Assembly (NCBI GenBank): GCA_050084515.1
Contig: CM114271.1
Coordinates: forward strand, 16,678,001-16,742,000
DNA: 64,000 nt
Direction of reading: 5' to 3'
Source of the DNA: Blasia pusilla
Taxonomy: Eukaryota
Under the pieces are notes generated by a model. It was given only the letters and a program-made list of their open reading frames with translations. It was not told the origin of the DNA and did no database searches. The translations under genes and the position numbers were made by a program. This document shows positions 10,890-63,248 of this stretch, in pieces. The first letter of the stretch is position 1. The number at the start of each line of letters is the position of its first letter.

Positions 10890-10956
10890 CAGCTCAAACG
10901 GCCTACTCCATTATGCGCACTTTTTGTTGTTGTCTCGCGCCAAAGGCATCTTACCC

Positions 10957-41900: not shown

Positions 41901-42336
41901 CTTCCAAGTGCGGAATTGTGTGGCCCGATTACTCCAACCTAGCCAAGTCTTCACTCAAAGCTACAGAGACATCTTCCCATACAACACTGCTTGGTTTGAT
42001 AAGGCCAGAGCTTCAAAGGGAAAGAAATGTGAACTCTCTAGCATTAAAGCTTTGAGGTTAGGCACTGGGCATTCCTTCCAAGTCGTCACAAACATGAACA
42101 TGGCAAGAAACGGGCTGCTGATGTAATTCTGTTGTAATGTAACCAGTTCAGCCTTGCTTCCAAGAACGGAATTGTGTTGTCTAATTTCCACAAGTGCCAC
42201 TACCTTTACTGCAACAATCCGAAAGCAAACGCTGCTATGCGTATCTCATCTCAGTGCTACTCCGCGGCCATGGGATCTGAATTGCAGAAAAGTATGAAGG
42301 TTACCAAGATGCGATTCATTGGATTCAACAAGTAAT

Positions 42337-43212
42337 TCAGGCTCTTCTCCAGACAGTTTCGGGCTTGTCAAGCTTCATGGCCGTGTATCTCGCTGCAGTG
42401 AACAAGAAATCACTCAGACGGTTCAAATACTGAGCTACCGATTGCTCCACCAAATGCTCTGCCACCAACGCAACCACTTTCCTCTCTGCACGCCTGCACA
42501 CTGATCTCGCCGTGTGAAGAGCAGCTGCAGGCAATCCGCCAGACGGAAGTATAAAGCTCGTCAGGGGAGGAAGTTCCTCGTCCATCTTGTCGATCCACCT
42601 CTCCAACGATACCACCCATTCGGGGTCGAACCTGACTTTAGCAACCTTCTTCGAGGAGAAGCTATTCAGAGGCGTGGCTACGGCCGATCCAACATCAAGA
42701 AGCCTCGACTGAATCTCCTCGATCTGCTCCAGCGTGGAAGCCAGCTGGGCTTGTAGGCAGTACTCGTGTGCCAAACCTAGAGCACTATTCAGCTCATCCA
42801 CGTCTCCAAGTGCTTCAAACGTTGCATCGTCCTTTCTTCGTCTCTGCCCATCGTACAGAGACGACTGGCCCTTGTCTCCAGTCCTGGTATAGATCTTCAA
42901 CGCTCCGCTTCCGTCTGATGAGAAGCATCGGGGGAGAATAGGAAGGGATTGAGCAGATAAGTAGACAGCGGATGCCGAAGTTCTCGAGGATGGTAAACCC
43001 AGGAAGCATGGTCTATACCGACCTGATGGAGAAGCTATGAACGCAAACGAGCGCGCAGAAGGCCCTGAAGCTAGTCGTGAGTCCGTGCAGGAGCCTGATA
43101 TCAATGCGCCTTCGCTGCTGCACTGTCCGAGCCATGGCCAAAAATTGACCAATGTGCGAAAATTGCGTGCCTGTTCATGAAGAGACCGCACACAATTCCT
43201 CGCTGAAGGCAT
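42337..43212 (-). CDS. MMAB: PduO-type ATP:cob(I)alamin adenosyltransferase (MMAB/CblB homologue) with probable organellar transit peptide
   Basis: KIYTRTGDKG, GDVDELNS, IQSRLLDVG, LPPLTSFILPSG, LHTARSVCRRAER and YLNRLSDFLF in an intact single-exon 291-aa ORF with a ~105-aa Ser/Arg-rich N-terminal extension. Confidence 0.95.
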   Translation of the reverse strand: MPSARNCVRSLHEQARNFRTLVNFWPWLGQCSSEGALISGSCTDSRLASGPSARSFAFIASPSGRYRPCFLGLPSSRTSASAVYLSAQSLPILPRCFSSDGSGALKIYTRTGDKGQSSLYDGQRRRKDDATFEALGDVDELNSALGLAHEYCLQAQLASTLEQIEEIQSRLLDVGSAVATPLNSFSSKKVAKVRFDPEWVVSLERWIDKMDEELPPLTSFILPSGGLPAAALHTARSVCRRAERKVVALVAEHLVEQSVAQYLNRLSDFLFTAARYTAMKLDKPETVWRRA

Positions 43213-44420
43213 GTTCAGAACACCTTTTCCGAGACAAAGAAATCAACGCTGCTCTTCCCACTGACCAACTAATTCAACCAGCGACTCGCTGAGGCTCGCC
43301 CATATATCACTAAGAAACCAAGCTTCATTATTTCACAGCTGCCACTCTCGCCGAACCTCCGGCCTCCGCTTCAATTCTTTTCTGTCAAGGCGCAGTGCCA
43401 GACGCCCATGATACTCCCATCGCCTCCTCCTGCCGGTTCGATTTAATAAGACTCCCCATGCCGCCTGTGAGGTCCAAGGGTTTTGGGTCCTTTCACAACC
43501 GCCCCCATCGGTACTTGCATCATATCACCATATACTCATTCTATCATCATCATATTATCAAGGGCGTTACCCCCAACCGGCGCACAGGACCGGCATCCTT
43601 TGTAAAGCAAGCCGGCAGAAATCGAGAATTTCCGATAGGAGCAGTCATGCATTGGGAGGTTTGCCGACCTGAAAAAGTAAAACGTCGGTTTTCTGCCGAG
43701 ACCCCTTCACCACAACCGGTAGAACACCGACACGTCGTGGAAAAGAATCGGCAGTTTTACCGGGGCACCACTAGGATTGTCAGCACTAGGTATGTTGGGG
43801 GGAACACCGGGAAACCACCGGACTCATAAGGACCCGGTCCCATGCGGCCGGCTTGCAGTCGGGGTCGCCACGATCTCCTTCTCGTAGGTTGGAAATAGGT
43901 GGTAATACGGTCGCAATCTTTTCGCCTTGTGTTTTGACTGCGCGAAGAAGGTTCGGGTCTCATGAATGCTATCTGTCGGATCAAGAATGATCCAGAACCC
44001 TCGGGCCAGGTCTTGGCGACCTCGGCCGCATGGAACCGAGTCCTAAGTGGCGTGCCGAAGAAATCTCCATACATCTGTGACCTAGATCTGTGGCCTGTCA
44101 AATTGTGACCGACTATGGTAGGATAGGGAAGGGTCGGGTCACTTGATCACCAAATGCAACTTAGCCACGTTGCCGTAGGAGGCGGCATGGCGGGCTCGAA
44201 TGCTCGAGCGAGTCGAGCCTCAGCCCTCGGGGCGATAGGGACTCTTTGGGAGTCGGGGTCTCAAGGAGTAGGCTTATTTCACTCGTTTTGACTCAAGACT
44301 CACTCAGGAATTGATACTCAGGATTTGGATTGCGGAGTCGGGACTCTAGTGTATTCTCAATTTCCAGAGGGGGAGAAGCAAATCTCACAGCTTCGTGCTT
44401 GGGTCTCGCCATCGCTAGGA

Positions 44421-44534
44421 TGTCATGACCATACCGATTATGTCGTAGAGTATAGTGTGCTAGTAAAGGCCATACCTTATGTAGGGCCGTAGTGTCTAGG
44501 TAGGGATGCGGTTTCATACATGGGGTTGGGGGTT
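44421..44534 (+). repeat. Repeat A1 (5' terminus of copy B)
   Basis: Matches 55540-55653 ungapped (about 5 mismatches in 114 bp), then diverges completely. Confidence 0.93.
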
Positions 44535-45803
44535 TCTAATGTGGAGAGCTTGGAGTGCGGAAGCTCTGTTGAAGTTCATCCAGATCGGGTGAGAGGTTCC
44601 TGTTGCTACTTGTATTATGATCTCATGTGAAGCTATCTGCTTGAGTGTGTGGAGCGTTGCGGATTTCTGCGTGCATGAATCTGGGCGGAAGCGCTGTCGG
44701 ATTTGCGATTCTGGAGGTGTATGGACATCAAGTTTGTCTGATTTTTAGCTCGGAGTACAGAACTCGGTTGTAGCTGATTTTTTGTGGAGAGATAGCTATG
44801 GTGTTCAATTGAATTCTGGTCGAAATAGATTCAATTTTGGTTGAGGATTTGTGGAGTAATTGCTGATCGAAATTTCACGGACTAGCTCAAGGTCTGGCTG
44901 TGGTGGACAGCAGATCGGAGGGGCTGGTTGGTTGGTGATTCGTCCGTTGTTGGAGACGCCTATCCCGTTGGGGGCGCCCTGGTTGGGCCTCTCTCCATAG
45001 CGAAGCATGGCAAAGCATGGCGAATGGGGCGATAGGGGCAAGTCTCAAGCATTTCTCGGCTTCGAGGCAACTCATGGTAGCTTGAGGCGAGTGGGTGTGA
45101 GAGGCAAAGTAAGGAGCAAGGAGCAAGCAAGCAAGCTTGCTTGCTTGGGCATGAGGCAGTTTTTGCATGATTTGTGAGTTGAGTGTTGCATAACTGGTCA
45201 CCCATCTTTGGGCTATTCTGCCTGGAAGAGGCTTAACTACTGAGATCTTAACTATGCCAGTGTACACACTGGTGTAGCTCATTTGGTGTTGTTCGGAGAT
45301 GTGTTAGGCGCTTTATGCATCTCAGGTTTTTGGTTGATGGACCTCTAGCACATAGTATGATGTAGCCTCTCCATGCAGGTGATATTTTCAGGTGCTGCGA
45401 GTGCAACTAGCACATCATCGACCAGCGGCAGAGTAGCTATTGCGTTAGAATTGTATGGTGGGTTCTGTGGATTCAGGGGGCGCCACGTTTGGTGGATTGT
45501 GTTACCTTGATTTCCATTTGCGATTGGAGGGTTGTTGTTGGACTTCTTGTGTTTGGATCCCCTCCATCGTTGCTTCTTGCTTGCGCGCCCATTATTATGG
45601 TTGACGCTGATTTCCACAGTAGTGTTACTCCTGTGTGCTACCTATAGTGAGGTTGGAGTGATGACCAGAAGACCGTGGGAGGCTTTTTGTGGTGATGACA
45701 GGTTAGGTTGCCTACACCCATAGCTAGTAGAGCTAGAATAGTATAGCGACATCGGCGTCACTTGGTTACTTAGTGGTGGTAATTTGGTGGTGGTGCGGCA
45801 TCG

Positions 45804-48650
45804 GTGTTGGTCATCACGGAGCTGTCTGGTGGTCTGGTTGGGGACCATGGTGCGGACAGTGGTGGTTTTACACGGAGTGGATTGAGGTATCGGCTACCTT
45901 TTCCACTTCCGACGGTTGATGAAGAGAAGGACGTGGGTGTTCCAAACACCGAGTCTTCTACGTTGTTATCGAGTGTTGCAGCTCCATTGATTTGGGACAT
46001 GGATGGGATATATGGGGTCATGAAGGGCCCAAGACAATACTCGGGTGCAGTGGGCACCATTGAGTTGGAGGACTTCATTCAAGAGTTTGATACGTGGTGT
46101 GATATGCAGATGTTGCAGAACGCCACGTTGTTTACACCCTTCTTGGCTTGGAAGGGGTTGTTTCAACACTTGGAGGGACCACCCATGGATGATTACCATG
46201 AGTTTAGGAAGGACCATGTTGCTGAGATTAAGGCGTGGAGACAATATTGGTCTCCATGCTATGTGTCAGTCACCCATGGTGATATTGGTAGTAGTGCTCC
46301 TACTATGCCAGCCAGCCCGACGTTGAGTGGTACGAGTACGAGCCGGAGTGGGGGTACTAGTGGAGGTACCCATGGAAGTACCACTGGGGATACTATTGGG
46401 GATACTAGTGCCCCACCATCGTTCACCCCGATTGCAGAGTTCTTCAAGAGGTTGAAGAAGAACTATCAGGGAGTGAAGACAAAGAAGTTGAGGAGTCTCC
46501 ACGAATTTGAGCGAAAGACTGGTGAGAGTCTTCGTGAGGCATACACTCGTATACGACGCTTGATTTCAGTAACCTAGGGTGTGATTGAGGCTCAGGCAGT
46601 CCAATTTTGGTATGGGATCTTGTACAGAGAGTTGCGTTGCAGGGTACGTTGTCGTGTCGAGAGCCTTTCTTCGAGCAAGGGCGGGCCTTCTAGCTGCGGT
46701 AGATGGGGTCGATGCAAGGTGAACTCTCTAAGAAGTTCTCCTTTTTCAATACAAAATTATGATGTACACTCTCCATTCTTTCACGACAGGTATCACAAAT
46801 GGAAATGCCGAGGCGATCACTTCTTCGTAACATCGGACCCCAAAATTCCTAACTATAAAATCCCTATAAACTATTTTACGCTTGTACACGAGGAAGATAG
46901 CACAACTAGTGTTAAACCCTACTTGAGCAGGCCTATTGACATCCATGGGTCGCTATATAAAGACATACAAAGTACAATCCCATGTCCTTCCATATGTGAC
47001 GATAGGAAGAATCACCGGAGTTGGAGATTGCATGACCTGGTTCATGAACGTCTCCCCAAAGTGATAAACTAAATATCGAGTGAACGAGTGTCTATCTACA
47101 AAGAATACCTTGACATGGTATGGATTGAGGAAAGGAAAGTCGGGCACAACTCGTGCTCCACCCCTATCCATGCTTGATAGACATTCTTTTCTCTCCTCAA
47201 GAATGGATTTTGGCAGAATTATTCTCCCAAGAGGGGTAATCCACTCTCATTGGGGAAGTAACAAGCCAAAACATTCACTATTTTAGTATGACTAAACCCC
47301 TCTAAGGTGACAAACCTCTCATCTCCATACACACACACACCACACTCTAAAAACCTCTCGAAGAATAGACCATGATCAAGTTACTCTCCCAAGAGGGGTG
47401 ATCCACTCTCATTGGAAGAGCAAGCAATCCCAAACCATACACTCAAGAGAGACACGAGAGACTCAAGATGTGGAATAGAAGGTGATGAATTCTTGAAGGT
47501 CCCTCCTCTTTATATACTCACAAGGGATCCACAAGAGTACGAAATAGAGCTTATCTTAACTTGTGCCACATGGCTTCCTCTCAAGGCTTAGCCAATCACA
47601 TTTTGACACAAGTAGATTTCCTCTTATCTCTTCCAAAATATCATCTTTTACCCACTTGATATTTTCCAAATTACCCCAACTAACCTAGCCACCAACCAAG
47701 ACTACTTTTGCTTTTCATTAAAGCAACTACTTTGCTTTTATAAATTCATCTTTTATTTATTACCTCCTTTTCTAAAGTTGGGCCCGCATAAAAGAGGCAT
47801 CATAAAGAGGTTTAAACATAAGAATTTCCTTTTTCTAAGTCAATTTACTTAATACTAATGAAACTCTATCTAACACTTAATGACGAAGGAATTTACATAT
47901 TGGTTGATTTTACTATACGACAACGTGATGCTACTCTTATGAGTGATGATTCACCCACATTGACCCATGTGTTTGCTCTGTATGAGAAGATTGAGCTTAA
48001 CATGGTCGAGGAGAGAGTGGTGACATCCGCATTCAGTAGGGATACAACTACTACTTCTCGTGTTCAAGAGTCCACCTCAGAGTCTCGTAGTGGTGGTGGT
48101 GGTAGTAGTAGTGGGAGTCGTGGGGGGTACACACGACCTCAATCAGGTCCTAGAGGGACACTTGCGCAGAGACCATTGCCTTCATTTGCTGCCCCGCAGC
48201 AAGGACAATCATATTGGACATGAGGAGGTGATCATGTTAGGAGGTTTTGTCTCCAAGAGGATGAGAGACGGAATTTGGAGGATGGGCCTCTGTCGGCCCC
48301 AACTCAGTGTGATCATTGTGGGAGACTAGGTCATCCTCGAGAGCCTTGCTTTGATCTTCATCCAGAGTTGAGATCAGGCCGCGGCCGTGGAGTAGCTCCG
48401 AGAGGCCGAGGTGGTAGAGGTGGTAGGGGTGGTAGAGGTGGACTTGTGGTTGGAGAGCCTACAGTGTCTACCCCTACCACTACGACAGAGTTAGCTATGG
48501 CTACCAGGATTGAGCAGTTGGAGCAGAAGTTGGCTACTATGGTTAGTATCCAGCATAGAGCAGGTTCGGGAGCAAGGGCTTCCACCTCTTATGGAGGGGA
48601 TGATCTCTCTTATATGGCGAGTGCAAAGACGAGGTTGAGGCATCGCCTGG
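45804..48650 (+). pseudogene. Copy B gag (interrupted by the 46650-47922 insertion)
   Basis: GTIELEDFIQEFDTWCD, WKGLFQHLEGPPMDDYHEF, ESLREAYTRIRRLI, CDHCGRLGHPREPC and an RGG-rich tract. Confidence 0.8.
46650..47922. mobile_element. 1273-bp non-coding insertion (solo LTR or non-autonomous element), TGTCGT...ACGACA, 4-bp TSD ACGT
   Basis: ACGT at 46646-46649 and 47923-47926. Removing the insert restores the gag frame RVR-DATLMSDDSPTL. Confidence 0.9.
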
Positions 48651-49778
48651 GCGATTTAGAGGAGCCACTCGAGCGTCAGAGCCACGTGGTGCTACTGTGG
48701 AGTTGGACCCACAGAGGGGTGAGGCTGGGAGGCACGCTAGGCTTTCCCAGTCATTCTTGTTGTCTGAGGTACTTAGGACTCCATCCATGGTTCCTACGCA
48801 GCCTATTGAGCCTATAGTCGGGACTAAGGCATCTACATTACGTGTAGTAGACACGGATGCAGCATCCAGTGCAGTATTGTGGATGGCAACTTCAGTGTTG
48901 GGATCCCCATTGTTTTCGGCCACGGAGCTCATGGCTTTAGGAGTTGACTTAGCTCCTGTATTTCAGCTAGCAGCCATGTTGTGTGAACGTGGGGATGTTA
49001 CTGCTACACGTGCTGGTCTATACACATGTCGTGTAGGACTCACCAATCGGAATATCCCACTCCGGTTGTCCAACATACATACACCATGTGTAAGCCTTTC
49101 ACGATCAATGGTTGGCCGGGCTGGTAATGCATCCATCTTCGCCGCTGCTGCCTGTCAAGTAGCACTGGTACTCAATGCTACACCTCACATTGAGGGTTGC
49201 TCCACCGCAACACCCTCATCCACTTCAGCACTGCTAGACGGTTGGGAGTACTTGCAGTGGTCACATCGGCCGAGTTGTATGATGTACTAGTTGGAGGAGC
49301 AATATTGTACCCGATGGGTTTTCAGATGGACTACTGGACTTAAACAGTGTCTTATAGATCTAGTAGGCAGTTTGGGGATGGACGTATGAGCCAGGTTCCT
49401 ATGAGATTTATTTATGGGGCTCAACCAGGAGGGTCTTCCCCAACGGTGTTAGCATCTGTGGCTGGTTTTAGTGGAGTAGTCACTTGGCCAGGAGACTTTT
49501 TGGAGGGTAATCTTTCTGCTATGGATTCTCCTGTGCATGAGGAGGTAGAGGAGGTCCCTAGTTTTGCAGCAGTGGCATCCTCTTCGTTGGATGTGCCACT
49601 TTGGAGTTCATGCGGTGCACTACGGCAAGAGGCTGATCGCCTAGTGCAGGAGGCTTGGTGTGAGGCTGTTACACCTCACGAGGAAGAGGAGGCCCCACAA
49701 CGGACTCCTACTTCTGGTCCAGTTGGGTTATCCCCTTTGGATACTACACCCATTGTATGGCAGTATCCGCCGGAGGGC

Positions 49779-50720
49779 ATTTGTGTGTTAGATCTCTTTG
49801 GTGGGATTAGCACCGGTTTGGTTTGGCTGATGTTGCGGCACCGGTATTCTGTCTTGCGGAGATACGTGTATGTGGAGCGAGATGAGACAGCCCAAAGAGT
49901 CTCATCCCGACATATCGGTCAGTTGATGCGGAGATATCCTGAGTTGTTGCCGCCATCATGTATTCGTGAGTACCAGCGTGCTTTGCCGTCACACATTGCA
50001 TTGTTGGGGGCGCAAGAGCTTGAGAGTGTTGGTCCTGTGGATTTGGTGATTGCCGAATGGCCATGTGAGGGTCATACACGTGCTGGTCATGGTGAGGGAT
50101 TACACGACCCTAGATCTCGATTATTTTGGGAGATGTTACGGGTCTTACGACATCTTCAGGTTTATCACGCACGTGCTACAACTTACACTCTGGAGAATAT
50201 TGTTGGGTGACACTCGGACCCAAATGATGGCGAGTGTTCATGAGGTGCGGTCTTCGATTGGACCAGCAGTGTTGTTGGATGCAGCGCGAGTTGGCTCGCG
50301 TGCACATCGTCCACGCTTGTGGTGGACAAACTTGTTGCCTAGGGAGGTTCTACGTCGAGCATATGATGTAGTGCAGCGGGATCCTTGCCTCACAGTGGAT
50401 AGTATCTTGGATACTGGGTGACTTTCTCAGGTGGTGAGGGTTATTGATCGGTCATCCATGGCAGTGGTGAACCGTGTGGGCTAGCCTAGGATGGCACTAC
50501 CCACATTTGTGAGTTTTCCCTCGTCACATGCCTACAGGGAAGGTGGTCCCGGGCTTGTATGGGATTCTCATGTGCGACAGTTGGTGGAGCCTAACGCTGA
50601 TGAGAGAGAGCGTGCGATGGGATTTGCTACTGGTGTGACAGCGGTTGCTTCCATTTTTTAGGCTTCACGACATCATGTGTTGGGTCAAGCCATGGACCTG
50701 AATTTTTTGACCTGGATTTT
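49779..50720 (+). pseudogene. Copy B C5 cytosine DNA methyltransferase domain
   Basis: ICVLDLFGG, YVYVERD, DLVIAEWPCEG, RSRLFWE, TLENI, RAHRPRLWWTNL, ERERAMGF, LGQAMD. Confidence 0.9.
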
Positions 50721-51099
50721 GAGTCTTGGGATGGCTGAGCAGCGTCGACTTCGGACTATGTCTATGGGTCTTCCATCCCTTGTGATGAGCTCGATGGCTA
50801 CTGGGACGGTAGAGACATCGATTGGGGGCGAGGAGAATAGTATTTTGCATCCTTGGAGTAAATAGGATGTAATGGTTGGGCATGTGGAGTTGGTTGCTCA
50901 TGCTGATGGAGGAGTTATTTGCTCAGATGATGGTGTAACCAAGGTTGTACCATCTTGTGAGAGGGTTGCCTAGCAGCCAATGGCGTCGTCCTCTCCCTCT
51001 ATTGTGCCAGTGGAGGAGATTTGGGAGCCATTACTTGGGCCCAAGCTTAGGGGAGGTGAGAAACGACGCTTGACACAATTCCTACGTGCTTATAGGATT

Positions 51100-53150
51100 T
51101 GTCTTGCCTTTAGCATGAAGGAGTTGGGTGCTTTGGTAAGACCCGGTATACGGATTGATTTGGCTAGTGATTCGCCAATCTTCCGTCGTCCCTACCGATA
51201 TAGTGATATGGAGAGGGACCTGATTCAGAGTAGGACGTTGGACCTTTTGGAGGCTGGATTAGTGGAGTTGTCACATGGAGAGTATGCATCAGCCACTATC
51301 ATGCCTACTAAAAAGGATGTGCATGGCAACTACACGGATAGGCGGATGTGTGGAGATTACCGTCTTATCAATCGATAGACCAAAGCCGATAGGTATGCCA
51401 TGCCTACACCTGAGGAGATCTTTGATGTGGTGGGACAGGCAAAGATTTTTAGTACTTTGGATCTTCGGGCAGGATACCATCAGTTGCCAATCCGAGAGAG
51501 TGACAAGGCCAAGACAACATTTTGGGGTGTCAACTCTCATGGCAAGGATTGTTTGTACCAGTGGAAATTCTTACCCTTTGGGTTGAAGAATGCACCTGCC
51601 GAGTTTCAGAGAGTGATGGACAGGATCCTAGCAGGGTTTGATTTTTTTCGATGTTACATTGATGATATCTTGGTGTTCAGTAACACGGTGGAGGAGCATC
51701 AGATACATTTGCAAATTGTGTTTGAGCGGTTGAAAGCTCATGGTCTACGTTTGCGTCCAGGAAAGTGTAAGTTCTTCCATGAGGATGTTGAGTACTTGGG
51801 TCATGTGATCTATCTAGGTGGTTTGGGAGTTCACCAAGCAAAGGTGGAGGCTATTGCACTTATTCCTCGTTCGATAGATGTGAGTAGAGTTCGGGCATTC
51901 ATGGGATTAGCAAACTACTATCAGAGGTATGTGAAGGGATTTAGTGTTATGGAAAAGCCTTTGAACCAATTGTTGAAATCAGATCGGGAGTGGCACTGGG
52001 GAGATGATCAGGAGAGAGCTTTTGTGGAGCTCAAGGCCCAGTTGGTGATTGCGCCTATCTTGAGGAAACTATCAGAGGGCGCCCATTTCAGTTACACACT
52101 GATTGGAGTAGGTTGGGACTTGGAGTGGTGTTGACACAACATGATGATGAGCACATGGAGTTTATGGTGGCCTATGCAAGTCGTTCGAATATTGCAGCGG
52201 AGTCGTGCTACAGTTCATATGAGGGAGAGTGCTAGACAGTAGTGTGGGTTGTGGCACACTTTAGATGTTACTTGTTTGGCATACAATTTACCCTTGTTAC
52301 TGATCACCAACCGCTCAAGTGGTTGATGGAGTCTGACAAGCTTCAGGAACCTAAAACGGCACTTGCGCGCCTAGCGATCCCAATTGTTCAACGGATCTCA
52401 TGCGAGTTCCAAACCGAGACCCAAGTAATTGAGTCGCGGGGTGAAATCCAAGAGGGACGTCTAAAATCACCTCCGTAGACTTGGTTCAGGTTTTCCAACC
52501 CAACCCCAAACTCTCGATCCGTTCCATGCCCTTGAGCCGTCCCATGGCGCCCAAAGTGGGGTTCAAGTTCCAAGCACTCTCGGAGACCTTCCCCCTTAAT
52601 AGTACTTTTGGGGTTCTCCAATAACACCCCCCCTTTTGGCCCTCAACCCGACTCTACTTACAGTCGTATCTGAGTTGTTTCTCAACCGTTGCGTACGCGT
52701 TTGCAGAGATCCTTAGTGCGTTTGAACTCACTTTCCATAAGCCTTCCAACGCACCCTTGTTTAATCCAAACGCATCTAGGCGCTAAAAGTTATGGTTATA
52801 AATACATTTGGAAACTCTCGAACGCTAGTGGCGTTCCAAATCCGGATTCCTTCCTTTGGCAACCCACTTTCTAGTCTTATTCCGCGTTTGGTCCAGGTTT
52901 CTCGGTCGCGACCACAACATCTCAAACACGAAGCCTCGCTTGCGTCTCGTATCTTGTCTCTTCTTCGAGACTACTCCAACGCGCAAACCATCTTAGCGTG
53001 AGCCCGCTAATGTTTTGATGTTCCGCTTTGGCACTCGTTTGGTCATGAGGATCGCGACACTTATCTTATAGGAGTATGACTTCCAGGTGGTACATAGACC
53101 TGGAGTTGCCAACCTTGATGCTGATGGGTTGAGTAGGAACCCATGTACTA
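51100..53150 (+). pseudogene. Copy B reverse transcriptase / RNase H
   Basis: RMCGDYR, LDLRAGYHQ, LPFGLKNAPAEFQR, CYIDDILVFS, LHTDW, TDHQPLKWL; interrupted at 52344-53059. Confidence 0.95.
52344..53059. mobile_element. Truncated LTR-like insertion in RNase H ending in CGCGACA
   Basis: Host reads MESDKL then resumes at LIL*EYDF. About 8 codons (TGKLARWA) and the insert's left end are missing, so no TSD is visible. Confidence 0.65.
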
Positions 53151-53349
53151 GCCAAGAGGATGCAAGTGGGGCTAGATGGCATGGCGAGGTTGATGAGGAG
53201 ATGGTGCCAGGTTGGCATGCATCCGCCTTTTTATGTTGGTTAAGGATGGACTCTAGTATGGAGGACCACATGACATCTTACTCTAGTCAGAGGGTAGATG
53301 GCCAGCCTTCAGATCCTAAGGTTGGAGATGGTTGTACGGATCAACGTGA

Positions 53350-55258
53350 TATTCATGATCATGCGTTGGTGTTGGAGTTCCTACGGACCAGTAGGGTGCC
53401 AAGCATAGTGAGTGCCAAGGAGCGAGACCATGTTCTTCAACGTGCTAAGAGGTATCGATTGGAGGGAACACATATTCTCCGTATGTGGGAGGTGTGAGAA
53501 AAAAAAAAGTGACAAAATCACTGAAATCTTTACAAAACTTAGAGATACAAAGTGGCCTAGTCCGTCCGTGCTCTCACAGAAGAGCTTCGATGGAACCTGA
53601 ACTGGGAGATAACTCGACATACGAGAATGCGCTACCGCTGCGGCTCCCGACTATTTGACTACTCGGGAAAACTAGGGTTTTTATACCTATTTTTCTTTGT
53701 TTCTATTAATAGAAAAATTTTGCCCTATATATTTTGCCCTAGGTTTATCTAACCCTATATTGCATCAGTGTGCCTCGCACCCTGATGCAATATAGGGTTA
53801 GATAAACCTAGTAACGCTACTCCTAAAACCACCTACGTCATATTACTATGACTCCTTCGACGTTTAAGTCGGAACCATCAATCTAGGCTTCTCCTCATAC
53901 AAGGGGGCCGATCAGATTAATGGTGCTTAGAGAAGTGGATGTTGAGAATCCAACAGGAGGATGGTAGAGTACGAGTAGTGCCGCATTTGGCTCAGAGAGA
54001 GCACATTGTGCGACATGCCCATGAGGAGTTGGGACATTTTGGGGTAAAGCGTACGTATAGCTTACTCCTGGGTCAGTATTGGTGGCGTGGCATGCATACT
54101 CAGGTGTAGCAGTTGGTGTCATGTTGTATGGTTTGTGACTGGGTGAGGGCATCATTCAATGCCCCTACACTACAATTACACCCCTTGCCTATTATGGGAT
54201 TGGGTTACCGTTGGAGTGTGGACTTTGCGGGACCGTTACCGTTGACTATATGACATCATCGATATGTGTTGGTGATGGTGGAGCACTTCTCCAAGTGGAT
54301 TGAGTTGGTGGCATTACCTGATAAGGCAAGTGAGGGAACGGCGTATGCATTTCTTGATAGAGTGCTTAGTCATTTTGGTGCACCAGCTGAAGTGCTGACC
54401 GACCAGGGTACAGAGTTTCGGGGTGAGTTTCAGGTCTTGTGTGACAAGGCGTTGATTGATCATCGGACCACGTCTCGAGATCATCCAGAGGCGGATGGTT
54501 TGGCTGAGCGTGCGGTTCAGATGGTGAAGAGGGCATTGCGCAAGTATGGCCTACAGAAGGGGCATCTTGGAGACTGGGATATTCAATTACCATGGTTAGC
54601 CATGGGGTATAGGTTCAATCGCCAAGCATCCTTGGCTTCCTTCTCACCTTATTTTCTGTTATACGGCCGAGATCCAGACTTACCAGCACCAATTCGTCAG
54701 GAGTCTAATGTGGTGGTGAACCTTGATGACCCAGAGATGTGGATGAGAGTGTGTATTCAGCGGGCAGAGCTCTTTCGGAGAGTTATGCCAACAGCCTTTG
54801 AGAATCTTGCCATTGCTCAACACAGGGATACGCTGTGGTATGCAACCATTCGGGGTGGAGGTTATTGACCATCGATTTGTAGGTTCCATGTGGGGGACTA
54901 TGTCTATTTGCAACAGATTGCACCGACAACGTTGGATGTGACGGCAGGCCGCACTATTTTACGAGTGCGAGAGGTGTTAGCTTCTGGAGTTCTCATGTCG
55001 GAGGGTCGTGATGGAGTTGTTTGGAAGGACCATGTGCGTAATTGTGCGCCATGTCATCTTCCAAATGTGGATGGTACTGTTGACCCAAGCTTAGCCATGA
55101 TACGTGCTAGCTTGAGGTGCATGTTGTGTGGGTCTACTGGTAACGCAGCCCGTATGTTGGTGTGTGATCGGTATTCTAGGGGTTGGCACATGATGTGTTT
55201 GACCCCACATATGGATGTTGTTCCTATTGGAAGGTGGGTTTGTCCTCGATGTACTTAG
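53350..55258 (+). pseudogene. Copy B integrase plus C-terminal PHD finger (55118-55255)
   Basis: HAHEELGHFG, WSVDFAGP, VLTDQG, GLAER; CMLCGSTGNAARMLVCDRYSRGWHMMCLTPHMDVVPIGRWVCPRC. Confidence 0.93.
53493..53955. mobile_element. 463-bp solo LTR (TG...CA) with 5-bp TSD GGAGG
   Basis: GGAGG at 53488-53492 and 53956-53960. Removal restores LRMWEDGRVRVVP. Confidence 0.9.
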
Positions 55259-55430
55259 GAGAGGTAGATGACTTGATCTTTGCATGATATGGATTACAGA
55301 TGTGCAACTAACGATGGGGCAACCTAGCATCCGGCCTTCTGATTCGTGCACCCACGAAGGTGTATAGCATGTAGTAGATGTATAGGGCTACCGGGGAGTT
55401 AGAGGGACCTAACCGCCGGTTAGGGAGGCG

Positions 55431-56013
55431 AGTTGTGGTACACTTGTGGTTGTGTATGCTCTCGTCTATGTTATGTATGTATGTGAGTATGGTATGTTAG
55501 CGATGTATGTTGTATGACGATGTGGATTTTCACGACAGTTGTCATGACCATACGGATTATGTCGTAGAGTATAGTGTGCTAGTAGAGGCCATACCTTATG
55601 TAGGGCCATAGTGTCTAGGTAGGGATGCGGTTTCATACATAGGGTTTGGGGTTACTCCGTTGAGGGTGACTTTTCCAGTAGGGCCCGCCCTTAGGTTGGA
55701 GGATATAGTGTGGAGTGTACTCAAAGAACAGTTAGTTCTTTGAGTTGAGCCTGTTGCGTTGGGAGTTAGCCTTGGTAGTAAGTAGAGCTCTTGGCTATGG
55801 TGGTTTCCGCAAGCTTCGACCTGGATTCTCTCATCGTGGAGTGGGTTTGGCTCGATTGTATGTGATTCTATACATGTTTTATGACAGTAGGTCTTTCACG
55901 GATTTCAGTTGTGGTACACTTGTGTTTGTGTATGCTCTCGTCTATGTTATGTATGTATATGAGTATGGTATGTCAATGATGTATGTTGTATGACGATGTG
56001 GATTTGCACGACA
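55431..56013 (+). repeat. 3' split-repeat module of copy B: B1 55431-55537, GT, A2 55540-55653, unique spacer 55654-55906, B2 55907-56013
   Basis: B1 and B2 are both 107 bp and near-identical; A2 matches A1. Confidence 0.93.
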
Positions 56014-57229
56014 AGGGAGTCGTGGCTCACTCAAAGTGCTATTCACTTAGTAACACTTGCTTGATTTCAGTTCCCAACTACAAAGTTCGCATTTGCCATA
56101 GAATCGTGCGATCCGCTTGCTGCCACATAGTCCAGACTTGGGCTTTGTGGCTATGAAGATTCGTGGAAGTGCCTTATAGATTATTGTCGTTGCTCTCTCC
56201 TTGCCACGCTGTCATTGCAAAGTGTGGAGTTGTGGATATTGCCACATAGCTCTGGAGTGATGTCTCTTTAGACTTTAGCTTGTGTCTTCGTGGAAGTGTC
56301 TCTCTCTCATTGTAGTTGAGATTCGAATCATGTGTCTTTTTGTCTAGTGAAGTCAGTATCCTGGTGTGCCTCATTGTGTGTTGAGTAAGGCTACCCATGA
56401 GCTTGCACGCATGGAATAGCAATAACATGTCGATCTCCCTTTGTGACTACAATAAATGTCACCCTCCCCTCTAGCGACTTTCTTGGGCCCTTATTGGAGG
56501 TTTCTTGATATTCTTGGATTAAATTAGTAATTAACTTACTATGCAAGTTGGGAGGACTTGTGTGTACGAGTCGTGCTCTTGGAGCCTTTGGATTTAGACA
56601 AGGATATATCCCCAAGAAAAGGTTTGAAAGACTCATCTTTTTAAAATTGAGTCTTCTAAACATAAGCAAGTTTAGGATGTTATCCATGGTGTATTTAATA
56701 TATATTCCTTCAATAAACATGCGGGTTTGGTTCGATTGTTATCCAATAATTCCGAGAGCAGTGTATTTCCCATTGATTTTCATTGTATTGCCTCTTAATG
56801 TGATGGTGAATATTACCATGTAATATATTATGTCTATGGGCACTTGGTTGAAGGTGTAAGGAGGGTAATGGGAGAGGCAGAGAATTCTTAGTCATAGGTA
56901 GATTAAGATAGTTAGTTATCTTGATTATGGGAATGTGGAAATTTCTTGGTGTGGATATATTCACATGTGGCACGGACTTAAGTCTGCATATAATTCCATC
57001 TATCAATATATGTGATTTCGTGGGAAAAAGCGTCATCCTAAACTTATAAGATATTAAGGATATTTTTTCATCCTTATAGTATTTTTTTTATCCCTCGTCA
57101 AATGGTACAAAATTCAAAAAAATTACGTTTTATTATAGAATTTGTATATTTGAATATGTGTTATGATTAAATTTAGAACACCATGTCAAATTATCATGTT
57201 TCAAATAAAATTATGTCGTGTACGTTGAG

Positions 57230-57567
57230 CATGGTTGCACAAAAATGGACAAATCCATCCCTAAGACATACATGGACGCACAAGTTCGGGTATGTCCACA
57301 AGCATGAATTGCAAGAGGAGGGGCCCATACTTATAGTTCATGACGGAAGGTAAGGCAAGGGCGAGTGGAGCAATAAGGGGGGAGGAAGTGGGGGTTGCTA
57401 GAGGAAAAAACATGAAAGTATGGAACACATAAGAGAGTGGGGGGATTGATAAAGAAGAGGAAAATGGGGCCCACATGGACCACTCCTTCCATAAAACGGA
57501 CGTGAGTCCACACACATGGATATATCCGCGGACACGGACTTCGTCCATGACTCCATATGTAACCTTG
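57230..57567 (-). mobile_element. hAT-type MITE copy 3
   Basis: CATGGTTGCA...TGTAACCTTG; TSD ACGTTGAG/ACGTTGGG. Confidence 0.85.
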
Positions 57568-57826
57568 ACGTTGGGCTTACGAGTTGAACTCTCATTTATA
57601 AATAGTTTTTACATAGCTAGTTTTCTTGAGCGAAAAAAATGGATCATGATTCAAATAGTACATTGTATCATCTCATATTAAACCAAGATTCATAGGAATT
57701 CATTTTTAATGAATAGACCGACAACGTCAAGGAGTTAAGACACGTGCCCCTATTGTTCAAACCAAGCATCATTTTGGGGTTTAAATATTTGTGACTATGC
57801 ATATTTATGCCAATTTTTCACTTATT

Positions 57827-57829
<3 letters not shown>

Positions 57830-57882
<53 letters not shown>
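57830..57882. repeat. (TA)n microsatellite
   Basis: Direct reading. Confidence 0.95.
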
Positions 57883-57886
<4 letters not shown>

Positions 57887-57920
57887 TCTAGTCAAGAAGG
57901 TGCTTTCTAATATATTTCAA

Positions 57921-58350
57921 CTAGTTAGCATGCTGGTGCTAGGCACGGAAAGGGATATTATTCTAAAGAATTATTAGAAAAAAAAATTTAAAATTAAAGA
58001 TTGGACATTCTTTTTTAATACACTCCTCACATACATAAAATCACCACTAAACCACTCCCCCCATAAATATAACCCCCACCAATCAAACTAAACCCCGCTA
58101 CTTCGTGCAATAATTATTACCCAAGTTTTAACCCACTCTTCACATACATAAAATCACCACTAAACCACTCCCCCATAAATATAACCCTCACCAATCAAAT
58201 TAAATCCCATTACTTCCTAGAATAATTATTACTAAGTTTTAACCCACTCCTCACATACATAAAATCACCAGTAAAACACTCTTCCATAAATATAACTCCC
58301 ACCAATTAAATTAAACCCCACTACTTCCTACAATAATTATAACCCAAATA
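57921..58350 (-). mobile_element. Probable Helitron 3' end followed by a ~112-bp tandem repeat (3 copies, 58021-58345)
   Basis: The minus strand reads CCGTGCCTAGCACCAGCATGCTAACTAG|T (short hairpin plus CTAG before T). Repeat units start at 58021, 58134 and 58245. Confidence 0.6.
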
Positions 58351-59357
58351 TTTTCATTTTTTCTCAAATCCATAGCAAGTTAAAAAGGAATACATAAAGA
58401 AAAAATAGTAACATGTTACCATTTTATTTTATTATGGTTGCTATCTTTTCGTATTCTACTTATGGGGTTGCTCATTATAATATGGATATACATGGATTGC
58501 ATTGATTTCCCTATGATGAAACATCGATTTCATACAGTATCCCAACATGTACAAGACTCATGCATCTCCAAGGAAACTTGGGAGAAGGTATTTTTATATG
58601 TGGATAAGCTACTAAATAATTTGATGCATGAAATTGTCATTTTATCAATCTTCATCTTCTATCAAACATACCTTTCCCATATTGGAATATAATCTATTTT
58701 TTTGTTCTAAAATTTCTATAACATTTTCCTATAACAAAATATATGCTCCACCCAACTTGATTATCAAAGGATCGTATCCCAATCGAGTAAGGGGACATCG
58801 CACGACATGAGATGTTGATCTTATTGGATAGGCACCCGTATCTCTTTGAGGATTGATATAAAGAGTTACAAAGGGAGCCAAAAAAATTGAGGTCATGACA
58901 ATAAGTGGACATAGACCACTTGGAGAATGGGAACCATACAATAACCATCTCATGTGATTGACGTATGTACACTCCGTCACCTCACAATGTTAACCAAACT
59001 AGATTCGATCTCAAATGCTCCATCACCTTAACACGGCCAAACTTTTGGGCCATGATAGTAAAAGTAGGAGACAACATCCCTCTTGAGTGGCATGCTTAGG
59101 GATCCCATTGGTAAATCCTTAGGCGGACCGCAAGACCTAATTGGTAGATAGGATACAAGAATTTTCTTCTATCATATAAGCCTCCTCTGTAGAGCATCAT
59201 TTTTGCAACTTTTTGTTGATGAAAAATCAAATACATTACAAAATATCAAAAGTTTCATATTTGAACTAGTGTAAAAAATTTAGATACATGTTTTTATCTA
59301 ATTTTTAAATATATGGATAAAATCCATAGCAAAAATTTTCATGCAAGGACAAAGCAT

Positions 59358-59360
<3 letters not shown>

Positions 59361-59401
<41 letters not shown>
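59361..59401. repeat. (GA)n microsatellite
   Basis: Direct reading. Confidence 0.95.
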
Positions 59402-59407
<6 letters not shown>

Positions 59408-61792
59408 CTTGTTGATAAATTTGCAAAATATCCTTAGCGAACATCTTTATGAAGGAATGTTTTTATATATGATTTTTTTGGGGTTCAATTTAATAGTAGA
59501 GAATGTAGGGTTGAGAGCGAGGGAAATTATCTATGAAAGCTAAAGTTAACTCTTTTCATGTAGTGCAATGGCATTTAGAGTGATACTTGTAGATTGATTG
59601 AAGTAACCTATGTACATAGGTTACCATATATGATAAGATAGTATGCCTTTTATCACTTTTAGAGCAAGAAATATTTCTTCCTCCCTTATATAGAAAATGG
59701 GGAATAAGACTATCTCATTCTGTTTCTGCGCATTCGATTTCTCAATCCTCCTACATATGCAAGAGAGTGTTTATGCACATTGACTCTCAATCCTCAAAAA
59801 TCTAGCCGCAATCCCATATTGCTAGCAACCTCTTGACCTTGTGAAACTTGATCCACTACCCAACATCTCGATCATATTTTTGATATTAAATGACACATAT
59901 AGAAGTGGCCCTTACTTGTTATGAAATTCCATATGAAGTGATACAATTTTGCTGCAAAATCTTATTTTCAACTTATGCAATTTTCTTAAGGAGACTCAAA
60001 GAAATCGTGACAATATTTTTTTTTAAAGATCTCTATTGATTTTAATATCGTGATTTTTTCCTTGTAAGGTTTGAATAAGTCCATAGAAAACTTTAAGAAA
60101 TCCAAATTATCTGTCAAATTTCCAAACATACCAATTGTAGTTATAAAATAAACCATGGTCTCAACGTTATTTATCCCTTTAGAAATTTATTCCCTCAAGT
60201 AGAGGATGGATTTACTAAATTGTTTTCAAATTGATGAATCATAAAATGGTATGTTATCCATATGATTTTCATTATGTGGCATCTTGATATGATTGTGTTT
60301 ATTCAAATGTTATATTGTGGATGTTAATGTATATACATGTGTGTTTATGACATTGATATATGTTGTGTAATGATTTATTTTTGTATGGCACAAGGGAAAA
60401 AGTTTTGTAGAACATCTTCTCTAGTCATGGAACAAAAGAAGCCTTAGCTTTTAAAGAAAGATTGCAAGATTTATACTCTTTTAGCCATTTCATATGTGGA
60501 ATATTGGAACAAATCTAGTGACAAATCCCTTTGAAGAGTTTCGTCATGATTCCTCACTAATGCAAAGAAAACAATTCTTGATGCCCTAGTCCTTGATACT
60601 CATAGGTAGATTTCAAAAAACCTATGAATGTGTTAGTGGATACCAATGATCATAAGTGTCTCAAAAAATCCGATTTCAAAAATATCACAAATATCCCAGA
60701 GTTCAAACATATAATTGGTTCAAAAATCACTTGCTCTTCAAATCACAAAAAAATCAAGTCTTGTTCTTTAAGATTCGATACTGTTAAAATAATTTTTTTG
60801 GGTCACAACTTTGTTTTTGGATAGTCTCAAATAAGCCCTTGTGTGGAAAAAAAATTCATTTTCATCAGACATCCCACTAATGGCTTTAAATTTTTTAATT
60901 TATAAGAAGTAAATTCTAACAATAAGAAAACCATAAGGGATTACGACTACAAATAGATATGCTAACAACCCAAATTAGAAATCCAATTAGTCAATCAAAC
61001 ATCTCAATAGTTGGTTGTGGTCACTACCATAACTGCATCTTACGACCATGGTCATAGCCAAGAATAATGAAAAATAATATGATTCTCACTAGTGAGAATT
61101 GAATTATCATTATTTAACTTTTTGGATGGTTGGAGCCTAGATGTTTTATAGGTAGAAGATCTAGATTTAGAATTCAAAGTTTTACTTGACTTTTATGCAT
61201 GAGTTTCCAATTATAAGTCACCTCTAGGTAGTATTATTCATGAAAATAAATTATCTCTTTACTCTAGATTTGGTGCTCCCGAACATGATTTTAAAAGTCA
61301 AATAATAGGTCCAGGTTATAATGGTTTGTCTTTGAGGATTTCATGGCCAAGAGTCTAAATTTAGCCATGTGGACACACTTCAATGCCTTGCACCACAATC
61401 ATTAATGTTCCAATAGTCCACCCTTTCTCAAATTCTTATGAAAATTTGAGGTATTTTTTGTACAAATAGACATCGCTATCAACATACATTGGACATTATG
61501 CTCAAAACAAATGAATGACGGGTCTACGCTGCAGGCAGAGCGAGCTCAGGTGCAGGTCATGGGTATCCAAGCCCACATAGAAGAGATATCCATAGACAAG
61601 GACTTTGTCCATGTGCAACTTTTACTCAATGATACATTGTGCAGTACCAGCAAGAGACAAGTTACAATGAATTCTCAATGTGTGATCTCCGATCAATTCT
61701 ATCGAACTCTACAAGGGAGAATCCATGCTAAACATATGCAAAGTTGCACTGTATCACAGATCATGATATGGGTTTGATATAAGGAAGATGAG

Positions 61793-62094
61793 GAAGGTTA
61801 CATGTGGACAAAGGCCATGCGTGTGGACTCAAGTCTGTCCTACGGAAGGACTTGTCCATGTGGGGCCCACCTCCCCTTGTTTCTCATTCTACCCACTTGC
61901 CTGTGTGTTCCACACTTTCTTGTTTCATCCTCCCTCCACCTCCCATTATATTGCCCCGCTCATCCTTCCCTTCCCTTCCACCATAAACTATAAGTGTGGG
62001 CCCCATCTCTTGCAATCCATGTCCGTGGACATATCCAAACTTGTCCCTCCATGTCCATCTTAGGGACGGATTTGTTCTTTTTTGTGCAACCATG
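61793..62094 (+). mobile_element. hAT-type MITE copy 4
   Basis: GAAGGTTACA...TGCAACCATG; perfect 8-bp TSD AAGATGAG. Confidence 0.9.
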
Positions 62095-63108
62095 AAGATG
62101 AGCTCCCATCATAAGTAGCTAAGTCTGTGATGCCCACGCCATTAGACACATGGTAAGTTGAGTCATGATTGTGGGTCCAAGGAGGAAAGACCTTGATGTG
62201 ATCCACCAAAGTCAAAACCTAGAGTAGCTAGTCACGAGACTAAAAAGGGTGACAGAACAAGTCGTGAGAGTAACATCAGGCGAGGTGTGGACGTGTTTTG
62301 TGATTGTCCTTAGGTGAGAAAAGGGTGTAACTACTTGCGAGGATAAAATCAATGCAAGCAAGGTTTGAGACCTTGGAGCCAAGCACCAAATCAAGGGCGA
62401 AAAGAAAGGAACATATGAGTAGTCAAGATGGTCGAGACGCCATGCTACTAGTCATGAAACGCAAAGGACAGCAAGACAACCATGAGACGAGGGGAAGTTA
62501 AGATGGGCCGTGAGACACATGAAACGCGGGTCCAACCTCCAAGATGCATTTGGAGAACCAAGAGTTGCATAATGTGCAAGAAGCCTTCGCCAAGCCATCT
62601 TGATGGATAACTAGTCTATTATCAGTCTACGGATCACAAACCACATTTGGGTTGAGGATCAAAATCAACTGAGGTCTGAGGGGAACAATAGAGAAGGTGA
62701 AGTTTCCCGGAGAACCCCAAGAGTACCCAAGGGATGGAAAGGGGGCACTCTCATTCCCTGCCTACACAAGTCCTTGAACTAGGAAGTAACCTTGTGTACT
62801 CTAGATTGTTGGTGACCGATTAGGCTAGATGAAGTAGAAGTCGGACTCTACGATGACTCCAAATGAGCATCATTCAATGTATATCCCTCTAGGCATTTCC
62901 ATGGGTGATCTGTATACGCAAGTAACATCTTCCTTATAGATCACCAACAACTTGTCCACAAGGTACTAACTCTCTATCAACTATACACATGGTCCTCTTA
63001 CAAGATCAGCTACTATCGAACAACCAACTAACCCTCAAACCCTATGGCCCCAAATAGATCCACACAAAGGACGAGAGGGTTAACCTCTAGGTGACTAGAG
63101 AAGTGGAG

Positions 63109-63248
63109 GATAGTATCAAGGCCTTAGTGGGGTATTTTACTTCTCTATTTTGAGAGGTCATACGTGACCTGCATCCTCCTAAGTGCAGGTCACGTATGAC
63201 CTCTCAAAATAGAGAAGTACAATACCCCACTAAGGCCTTGATACTATC
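63109..63248. repeat. Near-perfect inverted repeat, 65-bp arms, 10-nt loop
   Basis: 63109-63173 is the reverse complement of 63184-63248 with one mismatch. Confidence 0.93.

Follow-up and report, generated by a model that had tools for sequence, protein, structure and literature searches.

In a window of 64,000 nucleotides from the bryophyte Blasia pusilla (GenBank assembly GCA_050084515.1, contig CM114271.1, positions 16,678,001 to 16,742,000 of the forward strand), we found a cluster of retrotransposons comprising two diverged copies, A and B, a 3' fragment, C, and one internally deleted derivative of the A type. Copies A and B are probably decayed Ty3/gypsy-type retrotransposons that carry a DNMT3-like domain and are of the same kind as KnitGypsy-Dnmt3, which de Mendoza et al. 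2018 described from the charophyte Klebsormidium nitens together with SymbioDIRS-Dnmt3 from Symbiodinium (PMC5890265). The domain is, by sequence and predicted fold, a DNMT3-like C5 cytosine methyltransferase with DNMT3A and DNMT3B as its closest counterparts among solved structures. This kind of element is already known; the window adds a bryophyte host and further anatomical detail. Copies A and B share 66% DNA identity across the methyltransferase region and 73% across the reverse transcriptase (RT) and integrase. The elements and the two domains are located as follows.

~207-8760, minus strand: copy A, overall extent
44421-56013, plus strand: copy B, whole element
15944-18021, minus strand: copy C, 3' fragment with the integrase C-terminus, an intact PHD finger and the repeats B1-A2-B2, 94% identity to copy B 53956-56014
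14052-15215, plus strand: A-type derivative with an internal deletion, consisting of the 5' region, a small internal piece and the A2-B2 end
4537-5466, minus strand: copy A DNMT3-like domain, in one frame, with in-frame stops at 5085-5083, 4893-4891 and 4626-4624
49779-50720, plus strand: copy B DNMT3-like domain, motifs I-X, pseudogene

An alignment with 16 homologues revealed the methyltransferase motifs in both copies, namely motif I (DLFGGIS), II (YVE[S/R]D), IV (WPCEG, with the catalytic Cys kept), VI (LENV or LENI), VIII (GSRAHRPRLWWTN), IX (EPNAD[K/E]RE) and X (LGQAMDLN), which run canonically from I to X. This agrees with an earlier note on this DNA, which had placed motifs I, IV, VI, VIII, IX and X at the same position of both copies and had located both domains accurately. 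The note had also called the methyltransferase complete, which holds for the set of motifs but not for the open reading frames (ORFs), neither of which is intact. Copy A 4411-5547 (minus strand) represents a single frame with the three internal stops given above, and a fourth stop at 4413-4411 closes the translated stretch. In copy B, the 5' half of the domain lies within the ORF 49344-50210, the frame changes at ~50200, and the 3' half (50200-50865) contains in-frame stops at 50419-50421, 50482-50484 and 50659-50661. Copy B moreover has an extra base at 49830, which is absent from 151 of 165 related DNA reads and from all 31 RNA reads covering the position.

With its stops read as X, the copy A domain matched PF00145 at 39.2 bits (E = 7e-10), above the gathering cut-off of 22 bits; the 5' piece of copy B alone reached 21 bits (E = 2.5e-4), just below the cut-off. 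Among solved structures, DNMT3A was the best match of the single copy A sequence (5.9e-12). A family profile of 29 rows, compared with the PDB, matched DNMT3A (6e-19), DNMT3B (4e-16) and DNMT3C (9e-16), followed by tobacco DRM (1.5e-9), Arabidopsis DRM2 (9e-6), M.HaeIII (1e-5), M.HhaI (2e-4) and DNMT2 (8e-4), while neither DNMT1 nor a chromomethylase (CMT) was matched by it at E<=1. The AlphaFold2 model of the domain had a mean predicted local distance difference test (pLDDT) score of 69 and a predicted template modelling (pTM) score of 0.74, and confidence was low only for the termini, for a pair of short loops and for the part of the VIII-IX region that spans residues 231-285. A Foldseek search with this model gave DNMT3A (8te4_A) as the best match (E = 7e-14, template modelling (TM) score 0.69 normalised to the target), and the top 47 ranks among the matches listed were all DNMT3A, DNMT3B or DNMT3C. 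A rearranged domain of the DRM type was rejected, as the motif order from I to X is colinear with DNMT3A and shows no circular rearrangement. Between motifs VIII and IX lies a region of ~100 residues that is conserved within the family and has no counterpart in DNMT3A. A protein atlas labels the domain 'DNA methylase, Streptophyta'. The identity proposed in the earlier note can therefore be kept insofar as a real C5 methyltransferase is embedded in a Ty3/gypsy-type polyprotein, but it needs narrowing from a generic to a DNMT3-like enzyme.

Of the 138 aligned rows of the family, 137 have the catalytic Cys and 130 the E-N of motif VI; the RxR arginines are found in 97-100% of rows per architecture group, and the S-adenosylmethionine (SAM)-binding FxGxG motif is kept by 55-97% of the rows, depending on position and group. 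Because homologues reach E values of 1e-139 and the catalytic Cys is retained to this extent, chance can be excluded as the origin of the domain. We then compared copies A and B in protein-guided codon alignments from which stop and gap codons were dropped. The ratio of nonsynonymous to synonymous differences per site (pN/pS) was 0.34 for the methyltransferase domain (306 codons; 95% bootstrap 0.29-0.41) and 0.38 for RT-RNase H, the latter being slightly inflated by off-frame codons near the frameshift in copy B. The integrase gave 0.26 and the PHD end 0.29, compared to 0.52 for gag and 0.61 for the linker after the domain. Synonymous sites are near saturation (pS ~0.70), and the Jukes-Cantor corrected ratios of the two halves of the domain were 0.21 and 0.18. 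In 18 wrong-frame alignments, which served as internal controls, the corrected dN/dS ranged from 0.66 to 5.2 and was at least 0.88 in 15 of them. Since both copies decayed neutrally after insertion, the ratios between them overestimate the ratio in active lineages. We conclude that purifying selection acted on the domain as strongly as on the RT, which supports the previous assumption of selection in the active ancestors. The earlier note had named a lacking PF00145 match, a consensus without the catalytic Cys and neutral evolution as observations that would speak against it; none of the three was made.

The element is ordered A1, Gag (CCHC), protease (PR), DNMT3-like C5 methyltransferase, an in-frame TAG, RT, RNase H, integrase, PHD and B1-A2-B2. 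At the boundary between the methyltransferase and the RT, the two copies read as follows.

50971-50979, plus strand: copy B, TAG CAG CCA in frame where ORF1 borders on ORF2
4221-4213, minus strand: copy A, in-frame TAG (4221-4219) followed by CAA CCA, to 4213, homologous to copy B 50971

In both copies, the RT-bearing part (QP...SP.IV..E.WEP..GPKL) starts after the TAG and in the same frame. Eight homologues, comprising two Marchantia models, Calypogeia, Closterium and four unnamed proteins, stop 86-108 aa past motif X, and in a tblastn comparison the last matched residue of Marchantia Mp_4g09160 fell at window 50970. Firth and Brierley 2012 (PMC3542737) describe UAG-CAR-YYA as the type I context for stop codon readthrough, used by tobamoviruses among other plant viruses; its six context bases are expected to match by chance once in 512. 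The fact that both diverged copies keep TAG CAR CCA where homologous ORFs end suggests expression of Pol by readthrough in a plant retrotransposon. From these sequence features we infer that ORF1 encodes Gag-PR-DNMT and that RT-RNase H-integrase-PHD would be made by readthrough. As the C-terminal part of ORF1, the domain would therefore be made with Gag rather than with RT, contrary to what had been supposed before.

To place the family, we compiled its relatives. A word-indexed protein search returned 67 proteins of comparable length, the best of them at 62-64% identity and with E values down to 1e-139, as well as 21 that were longer, with Calypogeia fissa, Riccia sorocarpa, Marchantia polymorpha, four Sphagnum species, Closterium and Haematococcus lacustris as named sources. 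Relatives with ~60% identity belong to Marchantia, Calypogeia, Riccia, Sphagnum and Closterium, and at least four bryophyte genera have colinear homologues. Marchantia polymorpha contributed three near-length and 12 longer models, all annotated as 'hypothetical' or 'unnamed', and its Gag-PR-DNMT ORFs are apparently intact. An exhaustive profile search of 50%-identity representatives yielded 7947 proteins at E<=1e-3, of which 1782 also passed 1e-10 and 502 passed 1e-30; the best 150 of the 7947, which were listed, all had E<=3e-70. The architecture of 157 proteins was determined by phmmer with pieces of Marchantia and Haematococcus proteins as queries. The order PR-DNMT-RT, or part of it, was found in 23 of them, RT/RNase H-DNMT-integrase in 82 and DNMT alone in 52.

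A tree of 138 DNMT domains was calculated with IQ-TREE in a quick run (LG+G4), without reference DNMT1, DNMT3, DNMT5, DRM or bacterial enzymes and leaving out 20 proteins with matches of less than 270 residues, including Closterium P0061. A branch with a Shimodaira-Hasegawa-like approximate likelihood ratio test (SH-aLRT) support of 99 has all 20 PR-DNMT-RT rows and eight DNMT-only rows on one side, and all 79 RT/RNase H-DNMT-integrase rows and 31 DNMT-only rows on the other. Copy A of the window groups with Calypogeia and Marchantia (SH-aLRT 100). Exact look-ups showed that the PR-DNMT-RT side includes K. nitens KFL_013780020 (GAQ93235.1, P0346) as well as five Closterium proteins. The K. nitens protein carries zf-CCHC, an aspartyl-protease match just below the cut-off and DNA_methylase, and the stretch reaching from its protease through the whole DNMT aligns colinearly with Marchantia Mp_4g09160 (29% identity over 569 aa, E = 1e-54). 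The connection to the work of de Mendoza et al. drawn in the earlier note was thus right and can be tightened to the KnitGypsy-Dnmt3 kind, given that the K. nitens protein is in the same clade and colinear.

With KnitGypsy-Dnmt3, the family has in common a gypsy-type domain set and a non-rearranged DNMT3-like domain inside the polyprotein; in copy B, the repeats also resemble the DIRS-like split layout (Fig. 4c legend of PMC5890265). Purifying selection on the DNMT is comparable as well, with a published Ka/Ks < 0.2 against Jukes-Cantor corrected values of ~0.18-0.21 here, and a K. nitens protein with the order Gag-CCHC-PR-DNMT is part of the same DNMT clade and colinear. The two differ in their hosts, a charophyte there and a bryophyte here, in the low identity of the K. 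nitens protein (only ~29%) and in abundance, as few copies are reported for K. nitens compared to ~1000 here (PMC5890265). The PHD at the integrase end and the leaky-stop boundary are features seen in the window family. SymbioDIRS-Dnmt3 also has a DNMT3-type domain in a retrotransposon Pol and purifying selection and, like copy B, split direct repeats, but belongs to the DIRS class, has a tyrosine recombinase and a dinoflagellate host, and its CG activity has been demonstrated: two of its domains methylated CG in yeast (PMC5890265).

The RT-RNase H-DNMT-integrase-PHD elements, represented by Haematococcus lacustris QJQ45_005505 (P0207) and many metagenome proteins, form the sister DNMT clade. 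They share the catalytic motifs, the long VIII-IX region and the PHD at the integrase C-terminus (P0207, P0208, P0215) with the window family, whereas their DNMT lies between RNase H and integrase instead of between protease and RT, and identity is ~31%. The cellular enzymes DNMT3A and DNMT3B resemble the family domain in fold and motif order and are its best matches by sequence (6e-19) and structure. Unlike cellular DNMT3A/3B and plant DNMT3 or DRM, the family domain has neither PWWP/ADD nor the companion domain of plant DNMT3; it contains the VIII-IX insert of ~100 aa and is embedded in a Gag-PR precursor, and its motifs are not rearranged as those of DRM are. The EpiLTRs of Cymbomonas and Euglena are long terminal repeat (LTR) elements that also combine a cytosine methyltransferase with a chromatin-reading domain, but they encode a DNMT4-like enzyme at the 3' end of pol, accompanied by a Dam-type adenine methyltransferase and a chromodomain (bioRxiv 10.64898/2026.05.21.726589). 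Recent papers of the field mention 'streptophytes (Gypsy-DNMT3)' and cite just the 2018 work. The literature as accessible to a search contained no report of retrotransposons with a DNMT from bryophytes or from any other land plants, although supplementary lists could hold such elements; outside of supplements, it likewise contained no description of the RT-RNase H-DNMT-integrase-PHD group, of a PHD-tailed gypsy integrase or of a leaky-stop boundary.

To assess abundance and expression, reads of this organism from a genomic run and from three stranded RNA runs were placed on 42000-58000 at >=90% identity. Six single-copy flank bins had a DNA depth of 0.26-1.67 (mean ~0.9), compared to 820-940 in the bins of the DNMT, which indicates that the family at this identity comprises roughly 1000 copies, a rough figure based on ~1% of the genomic run. 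Most of the DNA reads lay between 90 and 99% identity, with 53,342 at 90-95%, 24,567 at 95-99% and 460 at >=99%. The family is not peculiar to this locus: in addition to these ~1000 copies, the family is present in Marchantia, Calypogeia, Riccia and Sphagnum. RNA depth over the DNMT reached 35-58 for pairs whose first mate mapped to the minus strand (sense), but no more than 2.8 for the plus strand (antisense). A host gene on the minus strand showed the opposite bias (44-105 versus <=3.8), and therefore the element RNA is sense and does not represent DNA carry-over. The family is transcribed in sense at a low level per copy. A joint 53309>54786, which skips 1476 bases and has 9 other letters between its ends, occurred in the RNA runs only (16, 31 and 47 reads; 0 DNA reads) and may reflect a transcribed deleted copy or a processed transcript.

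Pfam matches (RVT_1, RT_RNaseH, RT_RNaseH_2 and rve) and the gypsy-type order PR-RT-RNase H-integrase were obtained for both copies, whose remaining coding features are listed below together with the PHD finger of copy C.

6827-8332, minus strand: copy A gag, with CCHC-like CWSCGG / CDYC motifs
5534-6229, minus strand: copy A protease region (VLLDSG...), 231 aa, ORF open, identified through its homologues P0193 (Marchantia) and P0346 (K. nitens)
1147-4141, minus strand: copy A RT (from ~4141 downwards), RNase H (RT_RNaseH, E = 5.6e-34) and integrase
1245-1147, minus strand: copy A PHD remnant, truncated after His
45999-48625, plus strand: copy B gag, CCHC region, split by the private insertion 46646-47922
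48993-49238, plus strand: copy B inverted segment, opposite-strand joints at 49009-49231
51022-52343, plus strand: copy B RT and RNase H (RVT_1, E = 5.7e-33)
52344-53059, plus strand: copy B private 716-bp replacement
53060-55012, plus strand: copy B integrase (rve, E = 4e-12), split by the private 468-bp insertion 53488-53955
55118-55252, plus strand: copy B PHD finger, C-terminal end of the integrase (PF00628, E = 1.3e-7)
16700-16860, minus strand: copy C PHD finger, intact

That the methyltransferase follows the protease and precedes the RT, as described previously, can be seen directly in copy A. The protease ORF of this copy had no Pfam match at E<=0.01. In copy B, by contrast, a small inversion and deletion at 48993-49238 removed the protease core, which corresponds to residues 640-694 of P0193 from Marchantia. 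A PHD finger ends the integrase in copies A, B and C and is intact in copy C only; in copy B, one zinc ligand is mutated (CDRY versus CDRC in copy C), and the stop of the polyprotein follows at 55256-55258. The three private insertions or replacements of copy B (46646-47922, 52344-53059 and 53488-53955) are skipped by hundreds of DNA reads of other copies. For the 1277 bp in gag (46646-47922), the DNA joint 46645>47923 was covered by 212+245 such reads. This insertion is about as abundant in DNA as the element itself and is transcribed from the opposite strand at a depth of 65-150. Reads leave it into other flanks at 47922, and it thus represents a separate high-copy short element. The sense strands of copies A, B and C are biased in composition (G 0.30 versus C 0.18-0.20, T 0.26-0.30 versus A 0.22), which appears as a GC skew of +/-0.25 in the window profile. 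The observed/expected ratio of CpG was 0.58-0.71 in the copies, ~0.5 in intergenic DNA and 0.84-1.0 in host genes, and gives no clear signature.

The repeats that delimit the elements are the following.

44421-44537, plus strand: copy B A1, 5' terminal, 117 bp, begins TGTCATGACC, 95% identity to A2
55431-55537, plus strand: copy B B1, 107 bp
55540-55656, plus strand: copy B A2
55907-56013, plus strand: copy B B2, closes the element, ends CACGACA, 94% identity to B1
207-973, minus strand: copy A 3' repeat block with B1 (973-846) and B2 (334-207), which are 92% identical and both end GCGCACGACA

The order A1-internal-B1-A2-B2 in copy B corresponds to split direct repeats. B1 and A2 are separated by GT, resembling a joined end-to-start junction, and the termini are still TG..CA-like (TGTC...GACA). 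Two full-length identical LTRs are not present in copy B, which has only the 117-bp A1/A2 and the 107-bp B1/B2. The B1-A2-B2 arrangement was also seen in copies A and C, whereas the full pattern including A1 was found in copy B only; a search for A1 on the 5' side of copy A gave nothing convincing. Reads leaving copy B at 44533 and 55907 continue into consistent other sequence, and the 30-base read consensi that replace copy B sequence at these two positions do not occur within the window. The window contains no tRNA genes, and no primer-binding site was recognised.

Next to the elements, a host gene for a corrinoid adenosyltransferase (MMAB-type) at 42337-43242 (minus strand) is expressed in all three RNA runs and contains an intron of 108 bases (joint 42914>43023). 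Among named sources, Riccia fluitans provides the best match (70%), while other relatives are mostly from algae, fungi and protists. Two long ORFs on the minus strand (27847-31076 and 33363-33923) are Ala/Gly/Lys-rich with a membrane-like C-terminal part and are putatively LEA/seed-maturation-like. The window further contains a candidate PIF1-helicase-like ORF, typical of Helitrons, and tandem arrays at 10950-13100 and 58011-58343 with units of ~350 bp and ~111 bp. In the intergenic stretches 18100-42300 and 56100-64000, both CWG (observed/expected 0.17-0.67) and CpG (~0.5) are depleted, as opposed to the host genes (CWG 1.1-1.5, CpG 0.84-1.0), which fits a long-term CG and CHG methylation of non-genic DNA.

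Regarding the function of the enzyme, de novo methylation of the element's own new cDNA or of a fresh insertion appears to be the most likely of the options considered, although we assign it somewhat less than an even chance. The methyltransferase would be made in Gag-like amounts as a Gag-PR-DNMT precursor that ends at a UAG in a leaky context of the tobacco mosaic virus (TMV) type, and RT-RNase H-integrase-PHD would arise by readthrough only. The precursor would carry the methyltransferase into the particle, where the protease would then release it, and the enzyme might methylate the double-stranded cDNA or the fresh insertion de novo. Such self-methylation, an idea proposed by de Mendoza et al. 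2018 (PMC5890265), could give the element a chromatin state of its own choice, be it a gene-body-like mark or self-limitation. The PHD-tailed integrase may in turn read histone H3 tails at the target. Chromodomain integrases provide an analogy for such reading.

Other explanations have to be weighed against this proposal. The domain could keep fold and motifs but no longer methylate, serving the Gag-PR precursor as a structural module or as one that binds DNA. The charophyte relative that showed no detected activity in yeast (PMC5890265) and the long, poorly modelled VIII-IX region are compatible with such a pseudo-enzyme; a dead domain, however, would not retain the catalytic Cys, E-N, RxR and FxGxG residues at the frequencies given above (137/138, 130/138, 97-100% and 55-97%), and we regard this explanation as quite unlikely. 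Slightly less so, but still improbable, is an active enzyme that acts elsewhere than on its own cDNA, for example on host DNA at the target, on host genes in trans or on RNA (m5C on genomic RNA or tRNA). With ~1000 transcribed copies, a trans effect on the host methylome is conceivable, the PHD finger suggests contact with chromatin, and the RNA methyltransferase DNMT2 shares the fold (E = 8e-4). On the other hand, DNMT3A/B match 15 orders of magnitude better than DNMT2, the SymbioDIRS-Dnmt3 domains methylate CG in DNA, and K. nitens has an ordinary plant-like methylome although such elements are present (PMC5890265).

With respect to origin, the bryophyte elements could have gained their DNMT independently of KnitGypsy-Dnmt3, or could have come by horizontal transfer instead of descending from charophyte ancestors. 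The identity of only 29% to the K. nitens protein, the recurrent independent captures documented by de Mendoza et al. (PMC5890265) and the copy B integrase, which is nearer to a Sphagnum protein (79%) than to copy A of the same window (72%), would be in line with this. Yet the Gag-PR-DNMT domain order is identical, the PR-DNMT-RT rows from K. nitens, Closterium and bryophytes all lie on one side of the branch with SH-aLRT 99, and the unusual repeat layout appears to be common to both (Fig. 4c legend of PMC5890265 versus copy B), so that we give convergence or transfer a low probability. That a retrotransposon landed in a host DNMT3 gene, or captured a piece of one, at this locus only has nothing in its favour but the rarity of such elements in the literature. 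A host gene struck by a transposon was rejected on the grounds of the same site in two diverged copies, a depth of 820-940 and the colinear homologues in at least four bryophyte genera, and the probability of such an artefact is practically negligible.

Several points nevertheless weigh against the reading proposed here as a whole. The VIII-IX region is much longer than that of DNMT3A and was modelled at a pLDDT below 50, and the probable assignment to DNMT3 rests on ranked matches to solved structures and, as regards the grouping of the K. nitens relatives, on de Mendoza et al. 2018. The KnitGypsy-Dnmt3 domain itself gave no detectable methylation in yeast, a result its authors considered inconclusive (PMC5890265), and KFL_013780020 is only presumed to be a copy of the published element. 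At 44533 and 55907, respectively, 614 and 684 DNA reads of relatives run into other sequence; hence many relatives have other termini, and the split-repeat model may fit a subfamily only. Moreover, the window is without an intact copy, such that ORF structure and readthrough are read from two pseudogenes and from gene models of other species, and RNA reads at >=90% identity cannot show the translation of an intact DNMT or which copies are transcribed.

Overall, retrotransposons carrying a cytosine methyltransferase invert the usual picture of a host that silences its transposons. They have so far been documented only where genetics is poor, that is, in Symbiodinium and Klebsormidium, whereas Marchantia polymorpha is a tractable host and opens the role of transposon-encoded DNMTs to experiment. 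From the location of the enzyme in ORF1, ahead of a putatively leaky stop, one would expect Gag and methyltransferase to be produced and packaged together, which provides a concrete step towards the self-methylation hypothesis. It is possible, if rather doubtful at present, that an ancient gypsy-type lineage of streptophytes persisted from Klebsormidium and Closterium into liverworts and mosses and carried along an epigenetic kit of a Gag-level DNMT3-like enzyme, set up by the leaky UAG, and a PHD-tailed integrase. The element enzymes would then mark the new DNA of the element themselves and, given ~1000 transcribed copies in this genome and a dozen proteins annotated as 'hypothetical' in Marchantia polymorpha, could constitute a substantial and overlooked source of de novo methyltransferase in bryophytes. 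If this were true, the role of a transposon-encoded DNMT could be tested for the first time, in Marchantia.

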